Shown: positions 1-13,781 of the stretch, piece by piece
How the letters are laid out: each line of letters opens with the position of its first letter
How positions within the stretch are numbered: position 1 is the first letter of the stretch
IMG/VR virus record: IMGVR_UViG_3300032327_000778
Direction: 5' to 3' (one strand)
Length of the DNA stretch: 64,000 nucleotides
DNA from: an uncultured virus (IMG/VR IMGVR_UViG_3300032327_000778)
Lineage: Duplodnaviria; Heunggongvirae; Uroviricota; Caudoviricetes
The notes under the pieces: generated by a model
The model's database searches: none
Seen by the model: only the letters and a program-made list of their open reading frames with translations
What the model was told of the DNA's origin: nothing
Translations under genes and position numbers: made by a program

Positions 1-153
1 AAGATCCATTGCATCAAAATGATTGCGAACCAATACCGCGCATTTATTGTAAATGCGACCATTACGATCACAAATAACAATTGCAAAATCTGCAACGGTA
101 TCATTGCAAGTGGTTTCGGTGTCGAGAATTGCGAAAAACTGTTTTTTAGCCAC
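1..153 (-). CDS. DEDD-family 3'-5' exonuclease, N-terminal part (truncated by window edge)
   Basis: Manual translation from GTG at 153: MAKKQFFAILDTETTCNDTVADFAIVICDRNGRIYNKCAVLV...; ExoI motif LDTETT. Confidence 0.7.
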   Translation of the reverse strand, partial: MAKKQFFAILDTETTCNDTVADFAIVICDRNGRIYNKCAVLVRNHFDAMDL

Positions 154-192
154 GATTGATAAAGGTTAGCCACGGCACGACGCCGAGTTAAG

Positions 193-221
193 ATAATAAC
201 ACAAAAAACAGCCAAGTGCCA
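193..221 (-). promoter_or_regulatory. Possible leftward sigma70 promoter for the exonuclease cassette
   Basis: TGGCAC-N17-TATTAT on minus strand, positioned like the other leftward promoters relative to the repeat. Confidence 0.4.
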
Positions 222-225
222 GGAA

Positions 226-414
226 GTGCAAAAATACAACATAGGGGTTTTCCCCTATTGACAAAAAATTTTTGCCGTGGTAAAATTTTGGCGCCGCAGT
301 TGTTGTAAAAATACAACAGCACGAAAAATTTACGAAATTTTTCTTGACACGCGCCGCAAAATTATGGTATAATTTTGGCGCTATGTGTTGTTTTTTCGCA
401 ACACATTTCGTTAT
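226..414. repeat. Pre-early intergenic repeat copy A (two tandem promoter-hairpin units)
   Basis: ATAGGGGTTTTCCCCTAT palindrome 241-258; TTGACA(258)-N17-TAAAAT-TTTGGCGC; TGTTG-N8-CAACA; TTGACA(344)-N18-TATAAT-TTTGGCGC; hairpin ATGTGTTG..CAACACAT 383-406; CGTTAT. Confidence 0.9.
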
Positions 415-621
415 TTATTTTAAATACACCCGGAATTCAATTCCCATTGCAGAGCGAAAATGCAATTCGTCATATTCCTTGCTTAACTTATTGCAATCTT
501 TTATGCTAAAATACGGGCCGTCAATAATTTTAAAGTCTAGGCCATTAACCCAATCATCCCAGGTTGCCTTGCGGCCATAAGCACCACAACAATCTAGAAT
601 GTCATAATTTAAAAAATCCAT
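415..621 (-). CDS. Hypothetical small phage protein (68 aa)
   Basis: ATG at 621 with AAGGA SD; MDFLNYDILDCCGAYGRKATW... Confidence 0.7.
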   Translation of the reverse strand: MDFLNYDILDCCGAYGRKATWDDWVNGLDFKIIDGPYFSIKDCNKLSKEYDELHFRSAMGIEFRVYLK

Positions 622-623
622 GA

Positions 624-989
624 TCAATCCTTTAATGTAAGAGCACCATATGCAATGCCCAATTGAAATTCTAAATAACCTTGATCGCCCTGAGTCTCAT
701 ATTCAGCGTGCAACCAATTAACGGCCTCATTCCAATCAAAACCATGCATTTCCTGCAATGCGGCAATGCGCGCTTTGACAATTTCAAATGCGGCTGATTC
801 ATCAGCAATTCGCATACGTTCATTGCGATCACAAATAGTGTACAATTCAGCAATTGCCAATTCAAAATCGGATTCAATCCATTCGCTAGTATCAAGCCAA
901 CGGGGACGCACATTATGTGCATCTTTATAAAGATCCCAATGGGTAATTGCCAATTGTTCCAATTGGGTTAATTCATTCCATGCTTTCAT
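624..989 (-). CDS. Hypothetical phage protein (121 aa)
   Basis: Acidic ORF with WDLYKDAHNVRPR motif; TAATG-coupled to upstream peptide. Confidence 0.75.
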   Translation of the reverse strand: MKAWNELTQLEQLAITHWDLYKDAHNVRPRWLDTSEWIESDFELAIAELYTICDRNERMRIADESAAFEIVKARIAALQEMHGFDWNEAVNWLHAEYETQGDQGYLEFQLGIAYGALTLKD

Positions 990-1084
990 TATACCGCTCC
1001 GATAGCAACAAGATAAGCAACAGTTAATGCCGAAAAAATCAGCGCATAAAAAACAATTTTATCTGGATCGTTTCCGTTAATCAT
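989..1084 (-). CDS. Small single-TM peptide (31 aa), not in ORF track
   Basis: MINGNDPDKIVFYALIFSALTVAYLVAIGAV*; fills the gap between neighbours, TAATG overlap. Confidence 0.6.
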   Translation of the reverse strand: MINGNDPDKIVFYALIFSALTVAYLVAIGAV

Positions 1085-1085
1085 T

Positions 1086-1589
1086 TTAGTGTCCTTGTTT
1101 ACTTGGAATATATTCACCGCGAATATTGAAATAATCACATACCGCTTTTAAGTATTGTACGTTATCCTCATAGAATACCGCGTCGTCAATCATTGCCAAG
1201 TTAATATTAGCAGTTTTGAAACATTCAATCAAACCGTTAATCTTTAGCGTAGAACCCGATTGTTGATCGTCACGAGTGCGCGAAATAACATAATCAGGCA
1301 TACCCAATTTAGTATTTAAAAATTCCCAATCGGGTTCGTTCATTACACGCGCAGTCGCAATAATTGTATAACACTCTGGATCGTCCAAGTCATCCCAGAA
1401 TTTATTAGCCAATGGCAATAAACCATCCAACATTGCCAAGTGCTGATTATCTCGCCAGTAGCCAATATCAATTCGCTCACCTTCGCTGGTGAGAATAGTC
1501 CGGTAACGGTGACTGCTATCAACGATTGTTCCATCCATGTCATAAATTGCGATCCGCTTAATCATCTTGTTGCCTTGCGTTGTGTCCAT
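1086..1589 (-). CDS. dmp: HAD-family deoxynucleoside 5'-monophosphatase, T5 Dmp-like
   Basis: HAD motif I YDMDGTIVDSSHR, ATAR motif II, YEDN motif IV, LLPL segment as recalled for T5 Dmp; start 1589 (leaderless) or 1565. Confidence 0.75.
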   Translation of the reverse strand: MDTTQGNKMIKRIAIYDMDGTIVDSSHRYRTILTSEGERIDIGYWRDNQHLAMLDGLLPLANKFWDDLDDPECYTIIATARVMNEPDWEFLNTKLGMPDYVISRTRDDQQSGSTLKINGLIECFKTANINLAMIDDAVFYEDNVQYLKAVCDYFNIRGEYIPSKQGH

Positions 1590-1596
1590 GTAGAGA

Positions 1597-1626
1597 ATTA
1601 TACACGAAAAATCGGGTCGTGCGCAA
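1597..1626 (-). promoter_or_regulatory. Leftward sigma70 promoter, ATG 7 nt after -10
   Basis: TTGCGC-N18-TATAAT-TCTCTAC-ATGGAC. Confidence 0.7.
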
Positions 1627-1629
1627 ATT

Positions 1630-1813
1630 TGCGAAAATACAACATAGGGATAAACCCCTATTGACACACGGGCCAGGCTAGTGTATAATTTTGGCGCGGT
1701 CAGTGTTGTAAAAATACAACACAAAAATTTTAAATTTTTCTTGACACGCGCCCAATTTTACTGGTAAAATTGGCGCCACGGGTGTTGTTTTTTCGCAACA
1801 CCCTGGCCGTTAT
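1630..1813. repeat. Pre-early intergenic repeat copy B (two tandem units)
   Basis: TAGGGATAAACCCCTA; TTGACA(1661)-N17-TATAAT-TTTGGCGC; GTGTTGTAAAAATACAACAC; TTGACA(1741)-N18-TAAAAT-TGGCGC; GGGTGTTG..CAACACCC; CGTTAT. Confidence 0.9.
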
Positions 1814-1999
1814 TTATTCAATAACGAATTCCAATTTACGTTTTACGGTAATTGGATCTACCTCAAACCATTCTAAGTCATCAAAATCATCATCGGTCAA
1901 TTCAAAGGCAAATTGCAAGTCTTGCCAAACTTCCTCAATGCTATTACCCATTGAGGTGATGCTATCGTCGTTAATGCTTTTAGCCATAAACATAATCAT
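1814..1999 (-). CDS. Hypothetical acidic protein (61 aa)
   Basis: AAGGAG SD, ATGA overlap with upstream gene. Confidence 0.7.
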   Translation of the reverse strand: MIMFMAKSINDDSITSMGNSIEEVWQDLQFAFELTDDDFDDLEWFEVDPITVKRKLEFVIE

Positions 2000-2193
2000 T
2001 CTCCTTTGTTAAAAAAACGTGCAACGTCAACCAAGTGTTTAGCAGTACGATCAATCCGCTTTACTAAAGCCGGATAATCCAATTCCATCATCTCATGCAT
2101 TTTAACAGATTCTACAAAATAAATCAATTCGTCGCGTTTTAATTGCGACGTTTCGAATTTAGCCGCTTCCTCAATCAATTTGAATTTATTCAT
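1996..2193 (-). CDS. Hypothetical protein (65 aa)
   Basis: ATG at 2193 (MNKFKLIEE...), overlapping the upstream stop. Confidence 0.65.
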   Translation of the reverse strand: MNKFKLIEEAAKFETSQLKRDELIYFVESVKMHEMMELDYPALVKRIDRTAKHLVDVARFFNKGE

Positions 2194-2350
2194 CAAATCC
2201 CCAACCATTAAACAGTTTAGCCAATTTCGATTGTTTTTTATTCGGAATAACCTTAGGCTTAAATGGGCTATTCACGAATAGGGGCTTATGCGCCCGCGGA
2301 TCTGGTTTGCTGGCTTTTTTCATTGCCAAGTGCAAATGTAATTTTGTCAT
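2186..2350 (-). CDS. Small basic protein (54 aa), not in ORF track
   Basis: MTKLHLHLAMKKASKPDPRAHKPLFVNSPFKPKVIPNKKQSKLAKLFNGWGFDE*; AAAGGT SD; overlaps both neighbours. Confidence 0.65.
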   Translation of the reverse strand: MTKLHLHLAMKKASKPDPRAHKPLFVNSPFKPKVIPNKKQSKLAKLFNGWGFDE

Positions 2351-2418
2351 GATAAGTACCTTTCAATAAACCAGATTTTAAGGTAAAACATTGCGGTGAG
2401 TAGTAGTGCTGTTTCCAT
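2347..2418 (-). CDS. Putative leaderless hydrophobic peptide (23 aa)
   Basis: METALLLTAMFYLKIWFIERYLS*; ATG 7 nt after TATAAT; ATGA overlap with next gene. Confidence 0.4.
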   Translation of the reverse strand: METALLLTAMFYLKIWFIERYLS

Positions 2419-2425
2419 GTAGAGT

Positions 2426-2453
2426 ATTATACCCCAATTTTTAGAGAGTGCAA
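2426..2453 (-). promoter_or_regulatory. Leftward sigma70 promoter
   Basis: TTGCAC-N16-TATAAT-ACTCTAC-ATGGAA. Confidence 0.7.
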
Positions 2454-2478
2454 GCGTCCAGGGTGCGACACGATGACG

Positions 2479-2587
2479 CAGGGTTTCCCCTAGTGTGGTA
2501 TTTTTGCACACCCTATTGACACGCGCCGCAAAATTATGTTATAATTTTGGCGCCTCCGGTGTTGTTTTTCTGCAACACCGGATCGTT
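2479..2587. repeat. Pre-early intergenic repeat copy C
   Basis: AGGGTTTCCCCTA; GTGTGG-TATTTTTG-CACAC; TTGACA(2516)-N18-TATAAT-TTTGGCGC; TCCGGTGTTG..CAACACCGGA 2555-2582. Confidence 0.9.
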
Positions 2588-2794
2588 TTAAATTACATAA
2601 TTAACAATGCCGATCGTATTAGCAATTAAAAAGGCCCCATTAAGTGTGCCCAATGCTTTATCGCGTCGGACTAGGGCAATTATTAGCCAACTGACTGATC
2701 CGGTTAAAAAGCAAATATAACCCCAATTCATTATACCCATTGCAACCAGAAAAGATCCGAGTATGCTGCTAATTGTGCCAATCCATGCTAACAT
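2588..2794 (-). CDS. Small membrane protein (68 aa, ~3 TM)
   Basis: Three hydrophobic segments; adjacent to SprT gene. Confidence 0.7.
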   Translation of the reverse strand: MLAWIGTISSILGSFLVAMGIMNWGYICFLTGSVSWLIIALVRRDKALGTLNGAFLIANTIGIVNYVI

Positions 2795-3157
2795 TTAAAC
2801 ATCCATATTGTGATAAGTATCAGGGGACAATCCGTAGGATTGCATAATGCGTTGCCATGTTGGGCCATGCCAACGATTACCGCGTGGAGTGCCATTAAGG
2901 TTAAAGTCTACCTGATGTGCAATCTCATGCGGAATTGTTTCGTCCATAATCTGATCATAATGGGCAATAATAAACTTAGTGCCGATCTCGATATGATTGG
3001 TTTCCATCCAACACCGACCGGCTGTTTTAGTAAACCGACCATTTAATTGAATAGTTGGTTTATTAAAACGAATCAATTGAGGATATAACAAGGTGAAGTC
3101 GTGCCATACCTTGTCGGCCCGTTGCGTTACACGCTGAAGAATTAGTGACTTATCCAT
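2795..3157 (-). CDS. SprT-like zinc metalloprotease
   Basis: TAGRC, TIPHEIAH (HExxH), HGPTWQRIM and C-terminal H typical of SprT. Confidence 0.85.
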   Translation of the reverse strand: MDKSLILQRVTQRADKVWHDFTLLYPQLIRFNKPTIQLNGRFTKTAGRCWMETNHIEIGTKFIIAHYDQIMDETIPHEIAHQVDFNLNGTPRGNRWHGPTWQRIMQSYGLSPDTYHNMDV

Positions 3158-3164
3158 GACTAGA

Positions 3165-3192
3165 ATTATACACCAAAATTTGAGCAGGTCAA
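3165..3192 (-). promoter_or_regulatory. Leftward sigma70 promoter, leaderless start of SprT gene
   Basis: TTGACC-N16-TATAAT-TCTAGTC-ATGGAT; no room for an SD. Confidence 0.75.
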
Positions 3193-3305
3193 CTAGGGGT
3201 TTTCCCTAGTGTTGTATTTTCGCCCAGGGCCTTGACACGCGCCCAAATTATATGCTATAATTTGGCGCCAGCGCTGTTGTTTTTTTGCAACAGCCTGGTC
3301 GTTAT
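3193..3305. repeat. Pre-early intergenic repeat copy D
   Basis: CTAGGGGTTTTCCCTAG; TTGACA(3232)-N18-TATAAT-TTGGCGC; GCTGTTG-N8-CAACAGC; CGTTAT. Confidence 0.9.
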
Positions 3306-3307
3306 AG

Positions 3308-3339
3308 TTTAAATAAAGGGCTTTCGCCCTTTATTTAAA
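3308..3339. terminator. Bidirectional intrinsic terminator after A2-like gene
   Basis: TTTAAATAAAGGGC-TTTC-GCCCTTTATTTAAA. Confidence 0.8.
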
Positions 3340-3661
3340 TGGGTTTGCTATTAGCCAATGCATCAAAGATTGCCTTTAATGCTGACTTATTAGCCTTAGT
3401 GAGCGATTCAATGTCATTCTCAGGCAAGCGCAAGATTGCGCCAATTGCATCAGCAACAGAATCCTTTTTAACCACGGCTTCACCCGTTTTGGTTTTGTAT
3501 TCTTTTTTCTGATACACACCTTCACGAGACAACTTGGCAACAATCGAGCGAACCGATTTGCCCAATTGCATTGCCAATTGCTCAACGCTAATGCCAGCGG
3601 CATAATCGGCAACAAGCATTGCAGTTTGCTCAGGGGTATAGTTAATTGCTTTCTCAGCCAT
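3335..3661 (-). CDS. A2: T5 A2-like DNA-binding pre-early protein (108 aa)
   Basis: NYTPEQT, HTH-like GKSVRSIVAKLSREGVYQKK, SLTKANKSALKAI recall the A2 family; GGAG SD; dmp-like neighbour. Confidence 0.7.
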   Translation of the reverse strand: MAEKAINYTPEQTAMLVADYAAGISVEQLAMQLGKSVRSIVAKLSREGVYQKKEYKTKTGEAVVKKDSVADAIGAILRLPENDIESLTKANKSALKAIFDALANSKPI

Positions 3662-3683
3662 GCGATTCTCCAAAAATAAATAA

Positions 3684-3779
3684 AGGTAATGTGCAAGATT
3701 AGTTATCGTATAATCCTGCGTTGCGACGCTTGCTAAATTAACTGCTAACAAGCACAGTTAAGGTCAGTAGGCTTTACCT
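3684..3779 (-). ncRNA. Candidate structured 5' leader RNA of A2-like gene
   Basis: Four-way junction with G-U pairs valid only on the minus strand; see findings. Confidence 0.5.
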
Positions 3780-3806
3780 CTCTCAGTTGCTCTGTCCATG
3801 TAAATA

Positions 3807-3835
3807 ATTATACGGGAAGTCAGCGGAGAGTGCAA
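3807..3835 (-). promoter_or_regulatory. Leftward sigma70 promoter
   Basis: TTGCAC-N17-TATAAT-TATTTAC-ATGGAC. Confidence 0.8.
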
Positions 3836-3913
3836 GCCCAGAATCGCAGATGTGTTAGATTATTTTCGTATAAGAGTCGCCAGGTATATAAGAAAATATT
3901 ATATAGAAAAGTC

Positions 3914-3943
3914 TTGACGCGGGGTCGCCCTATGTGCTATAAT
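3914..3943 (+). promoter_or_regulatory. Rightward sigma70-like promoter in AT-rich region
   Basis: TTGACG-N18-TATAAT, followed by TATTATAT-GCAT-ATATAATA palindrome. Confidence 0.55.
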
Positions 3944-3984
3944 ATTATATGCATATATAATATATAATCATTATAAAAAATAGA

Positions 3985-4080
3985 CATAGGGGGGTTATCG
4001 GACGTTATGACTAATAGAACGATTAGGGCCCTCCCACACGGCCAACTTTAAGAAATTTTCCACAAAACTTTCGGTGCCAG
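3985..4080. other. Probable genome terminus / terminal-repeat boundary
   Basis: GGGGTTATCGGAC...CCCTCCCACACG..AACTTT.AGAAATTT resembles my recollection of the T5-like end sequence; lies between pre-early genes and the terminase side. Confidence 0.5.
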
Positions 4081-4233
4081 CTACCAGTGATGTACAACAC
4101 CCAACACAATTACCAAATTTGTTAATAGATAGCACAAGACTATTAGTGTTCTAATCCAACAAACTACGTCAGCCTCCTTGTCAGTTAAACCATACTTATC
4201 GCCTAATGCTTTAGCCCACAGTCTCCACATCAT
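4081..4233 (-). CDS. Small phage membrane protein (50 aa)
   Basis: MMWRLWAKALG...EAD...IRT...TN...HHW; GGAG SD; own promoter TTGAAA-N17-TATAAT at 4253-4281. Confidence 0.75.
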   Translation of the reverse strand: MMWRLWAKALGDKYGLTDKEADVVCWIRTLIVLCYLLTNLVIVLGVVHHW

Positions 4234-4312
4234 AATCTCCCAAGAAAATAATATTATACACCAATTTACTAAAATTTTCAACAGAGATTTTACCAGCGCT
4301 GAAAAATTTATG

Positions 4313-4342
4313 TTGACTTTTAGGTGCCTAAGGTGATATAAT
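4313..4342 (+). promoter_or_regulatory. sigma70 promoter for plcP-agt-terS-terL unit
   Basis: AAAAATTT upstream element, TTGACT-N18-TATAAT. Confidence 0.75.
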
Positions 4343-4364
4343 CTAGAAAATTACTGGAGGATAT

Positions 4365-5123
4365 ATGCACTACAGGGCCATTTTTATCTCGGACGTGCAC
4401 TTGGGTACCAAGGCCAGCAAAGCAGAGTTCTTGGGCAAGTTCTTAAAATCCAACACTTGTGATGAATTGTACTTGGTCGGAGACATTATTGACGGTTGGA
4501 AAGTCAAACAAAATAAGCTACGCTGGACAAACCAACACACTAATGTAGTCCGACACATCCTAGCCAAAGCCAATCGCGAAAAGACCCGAGTTATATACGT
4601 AGCTGGCAATCACGACGAGTTTCTTAGACCACTAATTAGTTACGGCTTAAAATTTGGTAGAATCGAGGTGGTAAACCAGTGTGAATATGTAGACTTGCAG
4701 GGTAAGCGCTGGTTGGTAACTCACGGCGATATGTTTGACGGCATTACTCGTTTAGCACCTTGGTTAGCTTGGTTAGGCGACAGTGCCTATGATTTCGTTT
4801 TAGGCCTAAATACACACTTTAACCAGTGGCGTCATCGCTTAGGATTTGGCTACTGGTCGCTATCGCAGTGGTTAAAGCATAAAGTAAAACGCGCAGTGGA
4901 CTTTGTGTTTAAGTTTGAGCAGACTATTACCAAGTACGCTGAAAAACGCAAGTTTAATGGCGTTATTTGTGGTCATATCCATCAAGCTGAGATTAAAGTG
5001 GTTGATGGTGTAGGTTACATGAATAGTGGCGACTGGGTAGAGTCGTGTACTGCACTAGTAGAGACCATGGATGGCAACTGGAGGATTATTAAACATGAAA
5101 ACAATCTTAGTAGTAACGGATAA
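4365..5123 (+). CDS. plcP: Metallophosphoesterase, PlcP-type phospholipase C (usually auto-annotated UDP-2,3-diacylglucosamine hydrolase)
   Basis: SDVHLG, VGDIIDGW, GNHDEFLR, HGDMFD, YWSLS, GHIH, GDWVESCTAL motifs; GGAGG SD; paired with a GT4. Confidence 0.75.
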   Translation: MHYRAIFISDVHLGTKASKAEFLGKFLKSNTCDELYLVGDIIDGWKVKQNKLRWTNQHTNVVRHILAKANREKTRVIYVAGNHDEFLRPLISYGLKFGRIEVVNQCEYVDLQGKRWLVTHGDMFDGITRLAPWLAWLGDSAYDFVLGLNTHFNQWRHRLGFGYWSLSQWLKHKVKRAVDFVFKFEQTITKYAEKRKFNGVICGHIHQAEIKVVDGVGYMNSGDWVESCTALVETMDGNWRIIKHENNLSSNG

Positions 5124-6090
5124 TGTACCCCAGCAAGTTAACGGAGTGGTTACAACGTTCCACAACTTGGAACTACAAGCAGATCGCGCTGGCTACCAGT
5201 TTGTATATTGTGATCCCCGGCAGTTCCCTAATTGTGGTGCTCCTGGTTATGGGGATATTAGGCTATCGTGGCCTCGTCAAATTGGCGAAAAGCTTAAAGC
5301 GGTAAATCCTGATTATGTGCATATTGCCACTGAGGGTCCACTAGGATTAGCAGCACGCTGCTGGATGGACAAACATGGCTGGCGGTATAACACCAGCTAT
5401 CACACTAAAATTCCAGAAGCCTTGAATAAATACTATAAAATTCCTACTAGCTGGACTTACCGGTACTTGCGCTGGTTTCACAAGCATAGTGGTAAGGTAT
5501 TGACTACTACGGCCAGTATGGTTTCGGAGCTTAAACAGCAAGGATTTTTAGGCGACATAATTCCCTGGACCCGAGGTGTAGACCGCCAACAGTTTTATAG
5601 TGGTTTAGGTAGTGAGGCCAGCATGCCTACACTGTTATGGGTTGGTAGAGTAGCGCCGGAAAAGAACTGCGAAGACTTTTGCAAACTGGACTACTTGGGT
5701 GCTCGTAAAATTGTGGTTGGTTCGGGGCCGCAATTAAAGTACTTGGCTAGTAAATACCCTGAAGTAGAGTTTGTGGGTATGAAAACCGGTGATGAATTAG
5801 CCAACTACTATCGTACCGCAGACTGCCTAGTATTTACCAGCCGTTGGGATACTTTTGGTATAGTAATGATTGAGGCTATGGCCTGTGGCACACCAGTTGC
5901 TGGTTATCCAGTTTGTGGTCCCAAAGACGTAATTGAATGTGGTCGTACTGGTGCTATCAGTGCTGACTTGAAACAGGCAGTAGTGCGTGCATTGGCAATT
6001 CCCAGACGTCAAGTAGTAGTAGGCAGCTATCGCTGGTCTTGGGAAAAGTGTTGGCAGATATTTGAGTATAATTTAGTGAGTAGATTGTGA
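5095..6090 (+). CDS. GT4 glycosyltransferase, Agt-like diacylglycerol glycosyltransferase
   Basis: QVNGVVTT, HIATEGPLG, TSYHT, LRWFH, WTRGVD, GRVAPEKN, DTFGIVMIEAMACGTPV; GGAGG SD before ATG 5095. Confidence 0.8.
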   Translation: MKTILVVTDNVPQQVNGVVTTFHNLELQADRAGYQFVYCDPRQFPNCGAPGYGDIRLSWPRQIGEKLKAVNPDYVHIATEGPLGLAARCWMDKHGWRYNTSYHTKIPEALNKYYKIPTSWTYRYLRWFHKHSGKVLTTTASMVSELKQQGFLGDIIPWTRGVDRQQFYSGLGSEASMPTLLWVGRVAPEKNCEDFCKLDYLGARKIVVGSGPQLKYLASKYPEVEFVGMKTGDELANYYRTADCLVFTSRWDTFGIVMIEAMACGTPVAGYPVCGPKDVIECGRTGAISADLKQAVVRALAIPRRQVVVGSYRWSWEKCWQIFEYNLVSRL

Positions 6091-7142: not shown

Positions 7143-8424
7143 AGTAAGCCGAGACGATGTAGACCGCGATGAAATTACTGAGTTTCCTATTGAAACCAGA
7201 TTTATTAAGTTGCCGATTGAAAACTACTTGAAGTTGTTAGGTGCTTGGGACACCATGAATCGTCCACAGATTGCCCTTATCAATGCCATTAACAATCCTA
7301 AGTATAGGTTTGTTTGTGCTGCATTGGCTAGGCGATTGGGCAAAACTTATATTGCCAATATTATTGCACAGCTGGTGTCACTAGTTCCAGGTTGCAATGT
7401 GCTAATTATATCACCTAACTATAACTTGTCTAGTATTTCATTTGAACTGCAACGCAAGTTTATCCGCCATTTTGACTTAGAAGTGGAACGTGATAACTTA
7501 AAAGATAAAGTTGTGGAGTTGTCGAATGGTTCGACTATCCGTATGGGTAGCTTAAGCACAGTGGACTCTACAGTTGGACGCAGCTATCAAATTATCCTAT
7601 TTGACGAGGCTGCACTAGGCGATGATGGTGAATCGGCATTTAATGTGCAACTCCGTCCTACACTAGACCGACCTAATTCAAAAGCTATTTTTATTAGTAC
7701 ACCTCGCGGCCAGCAAAACTGGTTTAGTAGATTTTACCAGCGTGGGTTTAGCAACGACTACCCAGAGTGGTGTAGTATCCAAGCAGACTATACTGAGAAT
7801 AGTCGAATGGCTGAGTCGGATGTGCAGGAAGCACGTCGTTCGATGAGCAAAGCTGAGTTTGAACAAGAATACTTGGCTAGCTTTAATGTGTTTGAGGGTC
7901 AGATCTACAGTTTTAACCGCGAAGTGGGAGTACTAGAATATGAACATCAAGACGGTTGCGAATACATTGCTGGCTGTGATCCCGGCTATCGTGATGCTAC
8001 TGCTTTCGTGGTTATTAGTTATAATCCTGTTAGTGACCAGTTTCATATCGTAGATGAGTACTTGAAAAGTGAGGCTACTACTGACAAGCATGCCACAGCA
8101 TTTCGTGAGTACTTAGACAAGTGGCAGGTAGAAGTGGTGTTTATTGATAGTGCAGCTGCACAATTTGCTGGTGACCTTGCCTATACTTATAACATTTCAA
8201 CTACTAAAGCCAAAAAAGATATACTACCAGGCATTGCTTATGTGCAGACACTAGTAGAAACTGGCAGATTGAAAGTAGCACCACACTGCACAAACGTACT
8301 AGACGTTATGGACCAGTATCGTTGGGATAGTCGTGAAACACTTACCCGCGAAAAACCAGTACATGATAAATTTTCACACATGGCAGATGCAATACGCTAT
8401 GCCTTATATACTTATACCCTATAA
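7135..8424 (+). CDS. terL: Terminase large subunit
   Basis: Walker A ARRLGKT, Walker B IILFDEAA, ISTPRG, nuclease GCDPG and HMADAIRY. Confidence 0.95.
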   Translation: MLKVSRDDVDRDEITEFPIETRFIKLPIENYLKLLGAWDTMNRPQIALINAINNPKYRFVCAALARRLGKTYIANIIAQLVSLVPGCNVLIISPNYNLSSISFELQRKFIRHFDLEVERDNLKDKVVELSNGSTIRMGSLSTVDSTVGRSYQIILFDEAALGDDGESAFNVQLRPTLDRPNSKAIFISTPRGQQNWFSRFYQRGFSNDYPEWCSIQADYTENSRMAESDVQEARRSMSKAEFEQEYLASFNVFEGQIYSFNREVGVLEYEHQDGCEYIAGCDPGYRDATAFVVISYNPVSDQFHIVDEYLKSEATTDKHATAFREYLDKWQVEVVFIDSAAAQFAGDLAYTYNISTTKAKKDILPGIAYVQTLVETGRLKVAPHCTNVLDVMDQYRWDSRETLTREKPVHDKFSHMADAIRYALYTYTL

Positions 8425-8951
8425 TGGCACACCCCCAACAAACCACGTTTATTAAAAATCTAAGTACCTGTTTTCCCCAGTATTTTTCAAGTAGTAGAGT
8501 ATTGGAAATAGGTAGCTTAAATATTAATGGAACAATTCGAGACTATTTTACAAACTGTGACTATACTGGCATAGACGTAGGGTCCGGCCCTGGAGTTGAT
8601 GTAGTTTGTTGCGGTTCTGAATATAAGTCTGAAGTTTTATTTGATATTACAGTAAGCACAGAATGTTTTGAGCACAATCCTCGCTGGCAGGAAACATTTC
8701 AAAATATGATTGATTTGACTATTTCAGGCGGACTTGTTATTGTAACAGTAGCAAGTACAGGCAGACCAGAGCATGGTACTAATCGGACCAGCCCTAGCGA
8801 TAGTCCACATACTTCTGATATAGACTACTATAAAAATCTTACAGTAAAAGATTTTGCAGTTAACTGGAACCTTGAAGAAATTTTTTCTGACTTTAGATTT
8901 GAATACTATTCTGGTGTTAGTGATTTATATTTTTTAGGAACTAAAAAGTAA
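8424..8951 (+). CDS. Class I SAM-dependent methyltransferase
   Basis: VLEIGS, YTGID, FDITVSTECFEH motifs. Confidence 0.85.
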   Translation: MAHPQQTTFIKNLSTCFPQYFSSSRVLEIGSLNINGTIRDYFTNCDYTGIDVGSGPGVDVVCCGSEYKSEVLFDITVSTECFEHNPRWQETFQNMIDLTISGGLVIVTVASTGRPEHGTNRTSPSDSPHTSDIDYYKNLTVKDFAVNWNLEEIFSDFRFEYYSGVSDLYFLGTKK

Positions 8952-9045: not shown

Positions 9046-9486
9046 ATGGACAAAACAGAATACTATCTAGAACTAAAACGAACATTTGCCAGTGAGTTTA
9101 GTTTTTACCTAAAAGCAGCAAATTTTCACTGGAACGTAGAAGGTATGTTGTTTTATCAACATCACGGCTTATTTGAACAAATCTATACAGAAGTGTATGG
9201 TGTAATTGATCAATTTGCAGAAGAACTACGCGCACTACAAATTGTAGCACCTGCTAGTTTATCCCAATTTGCACAGTTGACTTATGTTCAAGATGAGAAT
9301 ATGCCTGGCGACTGGCGTAGTATGCTACAAGAGTTGCTTATGGATAGCGATATGATGGCACTAAAGTTTCAGCAAATGTTTATGGTAGCTGAAGAATTTG
9401 GTGATCATGGACTGTCAAACTTCTTAGCAGATCGTCAAGATGCACACAAAAAGCATTCATGGATGCTACGTAGTTCATTAAAGTAA
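9046..9486 (+). CDS. dps: Dps ferritin-like DNA-protection protein
   Basis: FHWNVEG..F...H..FE..Y.E...ID..AEELR ferroxidase signature; HKKHSWMLRS. Confidence 0.9.
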   Translation: MDKTEYYLELKRTFASEFSFYLKAANFHWNVEGMLFYQHHGLFEQIYTEVYGVIDQFAEELRALQIVAPASLSQFAQLTYVQDENMPGDWRSMLQELLMDSDMMALKFQQMFMVAEEFGDHGLSNFLADRQDAHKKHSWMLRSSLK

Positions 9487-9915
9487 ATGGCAAAAAATAC
9501 AAATAAACGTATACCCGTTAAACACGTTAGAGATAAGGCCAAGTCAGCTTACGAAAAGCAAGATCACTGCTATATCTGTAAAACAAATCAAGACTTGGAA
9601 TTGCACCATCTTCACAGCGTAACACTACTACTAGAACGCTGGTCACAGAAAATGGGATATGATATTTCAACTGATGAGGGAATTTTAGCTGTTAGGGATG
9701 AGTTTATTGATAGCCATCGTCAAGAGTTATATGAGCAGGTTTACACCCTATGTAATCCTCATCATGTAGCGCTTCATGGTGTTTACGGTAAAACTCCTCA
9801 ACCTGGCAGCGAACCCAAGCAGCAGCGTTGGATTGAAATTCAACGTGATAAATTACAGGGTGGCCGTGAGATTCCTAAGCAAAGCTATGGAAGTTTCTTT
9901 AGCGAATTTTGTTAG
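9487..9915 (+). CDS. HNH nicking endonuclease, T5-like (between terL and portal)
   Basis: CYIC...LELHH, TLCNPHH..LH..YG; T5 synteny. Confidence 0.8.
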   Translation: MAKNTNKRIPVKHVRDKAKSAYEKQDHCYICKTNQDLELHHLHSVTLLLERWSQKMGYDISTDEGILAVRDEFIDSHRQELYEQVYTLCNPHHVALHGVYGKTPQPGSEPKQQRWIEIQRDKLQGGREIPKQSYGSFFSEFC

Positions 9916-13193: not shown

Positions 13194-13781
13194 ATGGCAT
13201 TAAATTTAATTACATTAGCTGAATATAAAACTTATGCCGGAATTAAAAGTACTAATTACGACAGAGAGATTGCTGGACTAATTCCCCGCGTAAGTGAACT
13301 GGTAAAAAAATACTGCAATAAAACTTTTGTAGACTATGTAGATGCAGATAAAATTGAGTACTTTAATGGTGCTACTAGTTTTGGCGGTAGTGGTCAGTCA
13401 AAATTTATTTTGCAAGAAAGTCCAGTTATTAGTGTTAGCGAGGTTGCGCTAAGCACAGACTACGGACAAAACTATACACCACTAGTACCTTATGTAGACT
13501 GGGTACAAGATGGTGACGAAGTTTTAGCAATTGGCTCACAAGGATTTATTAAGTATATTCGCGGTTATCGTGTTACTTATCGCGCTGGATATGATGATGT
13601 GCCTAGCGATGTTGCACTAGCAATTATGGATTTGATTAGCTACTATCGTCAAAATGATGCAGCAATTCACAGTACAAAAGCACCTGGTACTAATAGCGTG
13701 CAAATTGAGTATATTTCAACTACTCAACTGCCTGCTCATATTAAACGTGTACTAGATTTGTATAAATCGGATTACACATGA
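13194..13781 (+). CDS. Head completion / head-tail adaptor (T5 p144-like)
   Basis: LITLAEYK, V.YRAGY..VP.D..LA, PAHIKRVLDLY; synteny. Confidence 0.8.
   Translation: MALNLITLAEYKTYAGIKSTNYDREIAGLIPRVSELVKKYCNKTFVDYVDADKIEYFNGATSFGGSGQSKFILQESPVISVSEVALSTDYGQNYTPLVPYVDWVQDGDEVLAIGSQGFIKYIRGYRVTYRAGYDDVPSDVALAIMDLISYYRQNDAAIHSTKAPGTNSVQIEYISTTQLPAHIKRVLDLYKSDYT

Follow-up and report, generated by a model that had tools for sequence, protein, structure and literature searches.

Backward promoters with a candidate nick site at the early cassette borders of an uncultured T5-like lake phage

The early region of the virus recorded in IMG/VR as IMGVR_UViG_3300032327_000778 raises a simple question: why should consensus promoters stand between its gene cassettes and point to the right, when all long open reading frames (ORFs) of positions 1-3800 lie on the minus strand? 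The window, that is, the whole stretch of 64,000 nucleotides analysed here, is the first 64 kb of a viral contig of 89,832 bases, which begins inside the region of the finding, its cut end falling there. Terminase, portal, protease-capsid and tail genes are found from 6087 onward; the large terminase shares 41-50% identity with its counterparts in T5-like phages, and public metagenome matches to this DNA are mostly from freshwater. The phage is regarded here as an uncultured, T5-like lake relative of T5, and no close relative was found among cultured phages in a DNA search with positions 1-6000 or in a protein search with its gene resembling T5 A2. The answer developed below is that these promoters carry, just behind the -10 box, a word, GGCGC, which is probably the site of a T5-type single-strand nick.

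The original prediction had described six rightward units of TTGACA, TATAAT and GGCGC, followed by TGTTG-N8-CAACA, within 226-3305, and all six are in the sequence. Their -35 boxes start at 258, 344, 1661, 1741, 2516 and 3232, and the promoters match the consensus at 12 of 12 positions in four cases and at 11 of 12 in two. Each -10 box is followed by one to three T and then by GGCGC (at 290, 377, 1693, 1772, 2549 and 3264), behind which TGTTG-N8-CAACA starts at 301, 386, 1704, 1783, 2560 and 3275. The units are grouped in four intergenic elements (the slash in G/GCGC marks the interruption):

226-414, plus strand: element 1, with a TAGG..CCTA palindrome at 242-257, promoters at 258-286 and 344-373, and palindromes at 301-318 and 386-403
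290/291 and 377/378, plus strand: likely nick points G/GCGC of element 1, judged from relatives
1630-1813, plus strand: element 2, with TAGG..CCTA at 1645-1660, promoters at 1661-1689 and 1741-1770, and palindromes at 1704-1721 and 1783-1800
1693/1694 and 1772/1773, plus strand: likely nick points of element 2, judged from relatives
2479-2587, plus strand: element 3, with a promoter at 2516-2545 whose -10 box is overlaid by a palindrome, and a palindrome at 2555-2582
2549/2550, plus strand: likely nick point of element 3, judged from relatives
3193-3305, plus strand: element 4, with TAGG..CCTA at 3194-3208, a promoter at 3232-3261 and a palindrome at 3275-3292
3264/3265, plus strand: likely nick point of element 4, judged from relatives

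The surroundings of the elements were also as predicted. Promoter-like sites pointing left lie beside all four (193-222, 1597-1626, 2426-2453 and 3165-3192), three of them touch stop codons (415, 1814 and 2588), and between the fourth and its gene stands an ordinary terminator hairpin (3311-3337). The hairpin flank pairs ATG/CAT, GGG/CCC, TCCGG/CCGGA and GC/GC are all present, the upstream units 258 and 1661 having almost no flank pairing, and the four tested elements gave folding z-scores of -3.5 to -6.7 against shuffles. A second palindrome, which covers the -10 box, was absent from the earlier list; a bidirectional promoter at this place was ruled out by eye, the other strand having no -35 box. 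Elsewhere in the 89,832-base contig, no seventh full unit of promoter, GGCGC and palindrome was found.

The design is conserved. Using the A2-like protein (best 80 of 123 matches), 75 related loci were collected, some of them near-identical, and 72 contain at least one unit. Backward consensus promoters have GGCGC within four bases in 359 of 385 cases inside the array and in 18 of 100 outside it, while none of 81 forward promoters does. Counting from the word, a -10 box accompanies 284 GGCGC sites; 278 of these show TTGACA, with no or one mismatch, at a spacer of 17 or 18, and none shows it at the control spacing, so that the promoter design is not an artefact of the pattern used. Among 286 distinct units the spacer is 18 bases long in 260 and an extended -10 TG is present in 192; GGCGC lies 1-5 bases behind the -10 box, and in 154 of 198 units the palindrome that covers the -10 box stops at the nick point or one base beyond. 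The constant part is the promoter with GGCGC, and the exchangeable part is the palindrome behind it. A more distant relative (L243), which has the same cassette genes and an A1 homologue after dmp, carries a unit with a variant -35 box.

What the word may be is indicated by T5, whose single-chain interruptions are given as R/GCGCRGG (AY543070 annotation; PMC3517423, as far as the available part of that paper goes). The four annotated nick contexts of T5 read R/GCGC on the terminase-coding strand, and the units resemble them in having a 5' end word GCGC after a purine and in lying on the same strand relative to the terminase and late genes. Among the related contigs, 13 of 126 distinct starts on the unit strand begin exactly with GCGC, with 0.35 expected, and G precedes GCGC in the homologous units. 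The letters that follow differ (C, A or G), one further start carries an additional T at the place of the relatives' G, and starts lying a few bases off G/GCGC are single cases only; among other-strand ends of the same set, 0 of 76 have GCGC. In the nickase-fetched set, GCGC starts were 0 of 44 outside the array and 1 of 26 nearer to it or inside it (L536, whose start falls right behind the promoter in its homologue), and opposite ends 1 of 57. Seven starts can be placed right behind a promoter (L031, L046, L258, L296, L068, L536 and L027), that of L068 by its likeness to another unit of its own contig. Because related contigs begin at the word behind the promoter, the units are likely T5-type nicks built into promoters, and starts that are sharp on one side would be expected from a nicked molecule that was sheared and then end-repaired. 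This strand-specific, nick-like GGCGC is the main point that the original prediction had missed.

The starts could instead be an assembly or library artefact at repeats and hairpins, or reflect a restriction-type double-strand cut, and several other contigs do break within repeats, one (L224) ending at GGCGC plus adapter. These breaks scatter, yet the 13 starts fall on one base with varied following letters, and we consider such an origin very improbable. A KasI-type double cut was rejected, since the base after GCGC varies, and for a restriction site avoidance would be expected in either orientation, not in one. The avoidance of GGCGC concerns one strand: in 30 non-redundant flank sets outside the arrays (215,684 bases), the word was seen 19 times on the unit strand against 85.3 expected (rank 2 of 1024), and 81 times against 74.4 on the other strand, which shows no avoidance. 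The genome itself has 14 on the unit strand versus 31.2 expected, and in its early region, where the unit strand is non-coding, the count is 1 versus 21.

Several observations weigh against reading GGCGC as a nick site of this kind. The promoter-RGCGC unit was found in none of five cultured phages (T5 and four relatives), and the RGG tail of the T5 major-nick consensus is not conserved, the triplets here being mostly AAA, CAG, CAT and CTG. Within the arrays, 110 of 394 GGCGC sites lack a -10 box, so the word can do without the promoter. As for the 13 starts, a place right behind a promoter could be assigned only to the first four named above, plus L068, L536 and L027; L048 and L330 match GGCGC sites lacking a -10 box, and for six there is no clean homologue, L042 among them, which matches relatives without GCGC there. 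All starts come from relatives and none from this genome itself, and the strand contrast is unmatched, because the other-strand ends lie mostly outside the array. No end pile-ups were found in Logan contigs of 8 runs, contigs showing them poorly, and in this genome's late region the strand bias of GGCGC is weak (12 versus 14). Finally, T5 mutants without nicks are reported to be viable in the accessible part of PMC3517423. The class of GGCGC sites without a -10 box lies in the inner array (for instance L012:11380-11400), mostly with TGCACT or CCACT in front, and is matched by two contig starts.

A nick site calls for an enzyme, and T5 offers a further likeness here, in that a homologue of its putative nicking enzyme is present:

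9487-9915, plus strand: HNH-type protein next to the portal, homologue of T5.153 and in the same PHROG; candidate nicking enzyme

This protein is 37-52% identical to proteins of T5-like phages, several of them annotated as nicking endonucleases, and its C and H motif residues are invariant in 62 relatives. It is a candidate for the enzyme acting at the GGCGC sites, its activity being taken from annotation.

The palindrome behind the word was considered next to the idea, put forward in the original prediction, that it exists to make short or antisense hairpin RNAs. Almost every GGCGC has some palindrome behind it, with an arm of at least 10 in 157 of 286 units, versus 1 in shuffles; TGTTG..CAACA types account for 54 of the 286, and several other classes make up the remainder, among them 13 sites that we take to be parS-like and 5 presumably sigma54-like. 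In public contigs, the same promoter can be followed by a different palindrome that starts exactly behind GGCGC. Stem mismatches are G-T in 20 cases and A-C in 26, and so there is no G-U preference; the loops flip between A-rich (28) and T-rich (22), a T-tail follows the stem in only 24 of 179, and an Rfam scan of 1-4400 gave just two matches, far below threshold. The conserved hairpin, the tolerance of G-U pairs and the terminator tail of a structured small RNA were not found in the palindrome. It behaves rather as a DNA site for protein binding, and likely binds a host protein; given this DNA-type evidence, an extended dyad symmetry describes the covariation of the flanks better than pairing in RNA does. 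With unrelated palindromes taking its place in relatives as well, hairpin RNAs are not supported as the purpose of the palindrome.

The same evidence bears on the possibility that the units are ordinary antisense promoters acting on intact DNA, whose short or antisense transcripts would silence the early cassettes or terminate them, GGCGC being no more than a start-site word or a G+C-rich discriminator. Perfect consensus promoters facing the 3' ends of genes, together with stable hairpins, would fit it. Besides the lack of RNA-type pairing bias, U-tails and Rfam matches, it leaves unexplained both why contigs as long as 80 kb start at G/GCGC only 1-5 bases past the -10 box and why GGCGC is avoided on one strand, and we judge it unlikely.

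As to the host protein, the window's palindrome is a genuine intergenic motif of bacteria: a collection scan for it gave 120 loci, among which Methylophilaceae stood out. The form TGTTGY-W6-RCAACA gave 52 sites in 24 of 31 genomes of the family of one Methylotenera genome (Methylophilaceae), versus 1 control site, and 12 sites in 7 of 41 genomes of an order-wide sample, 7 of the 12 preceding Pfam porin, OmpA or OmpW genes. Such host-type palindromes hint at Betaproteobacteria as the host. The occurrence of this motif before porin, OmpA and OmpW genes, seen in Methylophilaceae and some other Betaproteobacteria (L489-L500, G001 family), is an observation in its own right. The idea of a HexR site for TGTTG-N8-CAACA was not borne out, the neighbours being porins and not sugar genes and passages of PMC5343134 yielding no motif, and TAGG..CCTA is not supported as a host site, being found in 21 of 61 genomes with fewer sites than the control.

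The genes bordered by the units are the following:

1-153, minus strand: start of a gene that we take to be exonuclease-like, from a DEDD-like motif; cut by the contig end, it heads its cassette in 42 of 49 architectures
415-1589, minus strand: cassette with a dmp-like HAD phosphatase at 1086-1589 and small ORFs at 624-989 and 415-627
1814-2421, minus strand: three to four small ORFs, none with a family, forming a cassette restricted to the subclade of the window
2588-3157, minus strand: cassette with a SprT-like protein at 2795-3157 and a DUF6552 membrane protein at 2588-2794
3335-3661, minus strand: A2/D5-like DNA-binding protein matching phrog_1725 (T5 A2 family), with its own terminator at 3311-3337

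T5 dmp is about 40% identical to relatives of the 1086-1589 protein. The A2-like gene is the first of three to four paralogues in relatives, and a profile from 185 segments of such paralogues matches T5 A2 at E 1e-5; a search with SprT as the query gave one locus only. In the gene maps, blocks are headed by the same genes and change their order between subclades. Across 50 architectures, gene adjacency was kept in 88% of comparisons inside a cassette versus 59% across a unit, the pairs not being independent; genes also move within cassettes. The claim that the repeats are cassette borders is partly supported.

This arrangement recalls the early promoter/stem-loop elements (PeSLs) of T4-type phages, described in the available part of PMC2839356 as repeated intergenic sigma70 consensus promoters with a stem-loop that may overlap the -10 box, found at the borders of variable small genes. 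According to the same source, a PeSL points at its gene and has a Shine-Dalgarno sequence and a start codon at its 3' end, whereas the units are directed at the stop codons of genes on the opposite strand, have no ORF to drive and contain the reserved GGCGC. The units could still be recombination cassettes of this sort, in which the repeats serve the shuffling of gene modules and nicks, if present, merely promote the exchange. The better conservation of neighbours inside cassettes and the swapping of the palindrome exactly behind GGCGC speak for it; the exact -35/-10 spacing and the fixed backward direction would be unnecessary for shuffling, the closest relatives (L002-L014) keep a single gene order, and genes move inside cassettes too, which makes this explanation quite unlikely in our view. 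The unit works like a PeSL border and like the nick and injection-stop region of T5, yet it is neither a PeSL nor the T5 major-nick consensus.

The position of the units in the genome is relevant as well. Contig depth roughly halves past window position 4300 in run X1 (160-199 versus 81-95) and falls from 135-182 to 83 past position 13,240 of the related contig L012 in run X17; these steps of about two-fold in contig-level depths hint at a terminal repeat, direct and about 7.8 kb long. All six units would then lie inside a terminal repeat, probably in the DNA that is likely injected first. About ten units are spaced 0.7-1.4 kb apart across the probable repeat, the innermost lying about 400 bases inside its inner end. 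T5 differs in having five major nicks spread over the genome, none of them in a sigma70 promoter by the pattern used, while here about ten sites are clustered in the repeat; it is similar in having one site near the inner end of its terminal repeat, with a palindrome following. Positions 3914-4050 hold a seventh backward consensus promoter, without GGCGC and followed by an A/T-only tract and a segment of G/C runs; the segment is conserved in relatives, lies near the probable genome end and is possibly a packaging or end signal.

The injection-stop and repeat regions of T5 are described in the available part of 10.1101/866236 as non-coding repeats with palindromes in the first-injected DNA, including sites for host proteins, and as three repeat regions with DnaA boxes, in contrast to the small module found here at every cassette border. 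A2 and dmp homologues lie nearby in both phages, and the pre-early genes here, unlike those of T5, read into the genome. In the T5 injection-stop region (L077:9300-9750), a perfect palindrome follows the nick at once; beside its DnaA boxes are others that we take to be Fur-like and LexA-like.

These likenesses underlie the main rival to the mechanism proposed below, namely that the nicks are real and serve DNA entry, with polymerase and host proteins bound to either side of each nick as pawls or stop points, so that T5's two-step injection would become one of many steps, each released by an A2-like paralogue. The spacing of about ten units over the probable terminal repeat, the three to four A2-like paralogues of relatives, the place of the innermost unit, similar to that of the T5 nick in the injection-stop region, and the palindrome directly behind that nick are all consistent with it. 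No A1 homologue was found in this contig, which is cut at its end, or in the 75 loci, but only in the distant L243, and a role of T5's own nick in the injection stop is not established; we hold this explanation to be doubtful.

Taking together what is seen directly, that is, how the units are built and conserved, where related contigs start (G/GCGC) and the one-strand avoidance of the word, we propose that the unit is a border module acting at the DNA level, a backward promoter with a nick site and palindromes that brakes the early cassettes, and we see the chances for and against this mechanism as a whole as evenly balanced. The HNH protein encoded beside the portal would nick the GGCGC strand during packaging. 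A nick 1-5 bases behind TATAAT would give the non-template strand a free 3' tail that covers the -10 box and, because this tail resembles that of a fork-junction probe, the host sigma70 polymerase would then bind very tightly, facing the early genes. In the portions of the sources available, fork-junction DNAs with such tails are reported to form heparin-resistant polymerase complexes (PMC2613000), the lifetime of open complexes to be governed by the discriminator (PMC4496709), and R-loops to be favoured by non-template nicks behind a promoter (PMC4083084). The clamped polymerase, together with a protein on the next palindrome, would form a head-on brake ending the transcription of each cassette, a function offered here as a proposal. 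Sealing of the nick, as reported for phiKF77 in the available part of PMC3517423, would weaken the brake, which would therefore mark the infecting genome only. Nicks and repeats would lead to the swapping of cassettes and palindromes at the border as a side effect.

Two variants were considered. Each genome has about ten sites, too few to make sequestration of polymerase by their number likely. More tentative than the brake is the idea of nick-gated promoters, against which the chances stand fairly high: packaging would write a one-use mark, and polymerase would clamp the incoming genome only, metering entry and expression cassette by cassette until sealing. If true, this would give T5-type nicks, whose purpose in T5-like virion DNA is stated to be unknown in the accessible part of PMC3517423, their first function, and would be a many-step form of two-step injection. 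A nick word at a fixed spot of a consensus promoter in a large lake clade links nicks with RNA polymerase and offers a testable clue to the reason for them, and contig starts in public metagenomes can map the virion nicks of uncultured phages. No printed description of the unit was found in the open-access literature, which does not take in most papers behind subscriptions, among them those that first described the nicks and the genome of T5.

Some other features of this phage deserve mention. A metallophosphoesterase and a family 4 glycosyltransferase are encoded at window 4365-6090, downstream of a strong promoter at 4313, and a Dps-like protein (9046-9486) and an S-adenosylmethionine (SAM) methyltransferase (8424-8951) are inserted between terminase and portal. 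Among the early genes at G000 77,364-79,638 are a collagen-like protein of Gly-Pro-Pro repeats and small proteins resembling, by eye, those of spore surfaces. Lastly, a two-piece, phage-borne transfer-messenger RNA (tmRNA) of a betaproteobacterial family, with the tag ANDEVFALAA, lies beside a tRNA-Thr at L001:6583-6946 (G000 76,415-76,778), and eight tRNAs are found within the same 20 kb.

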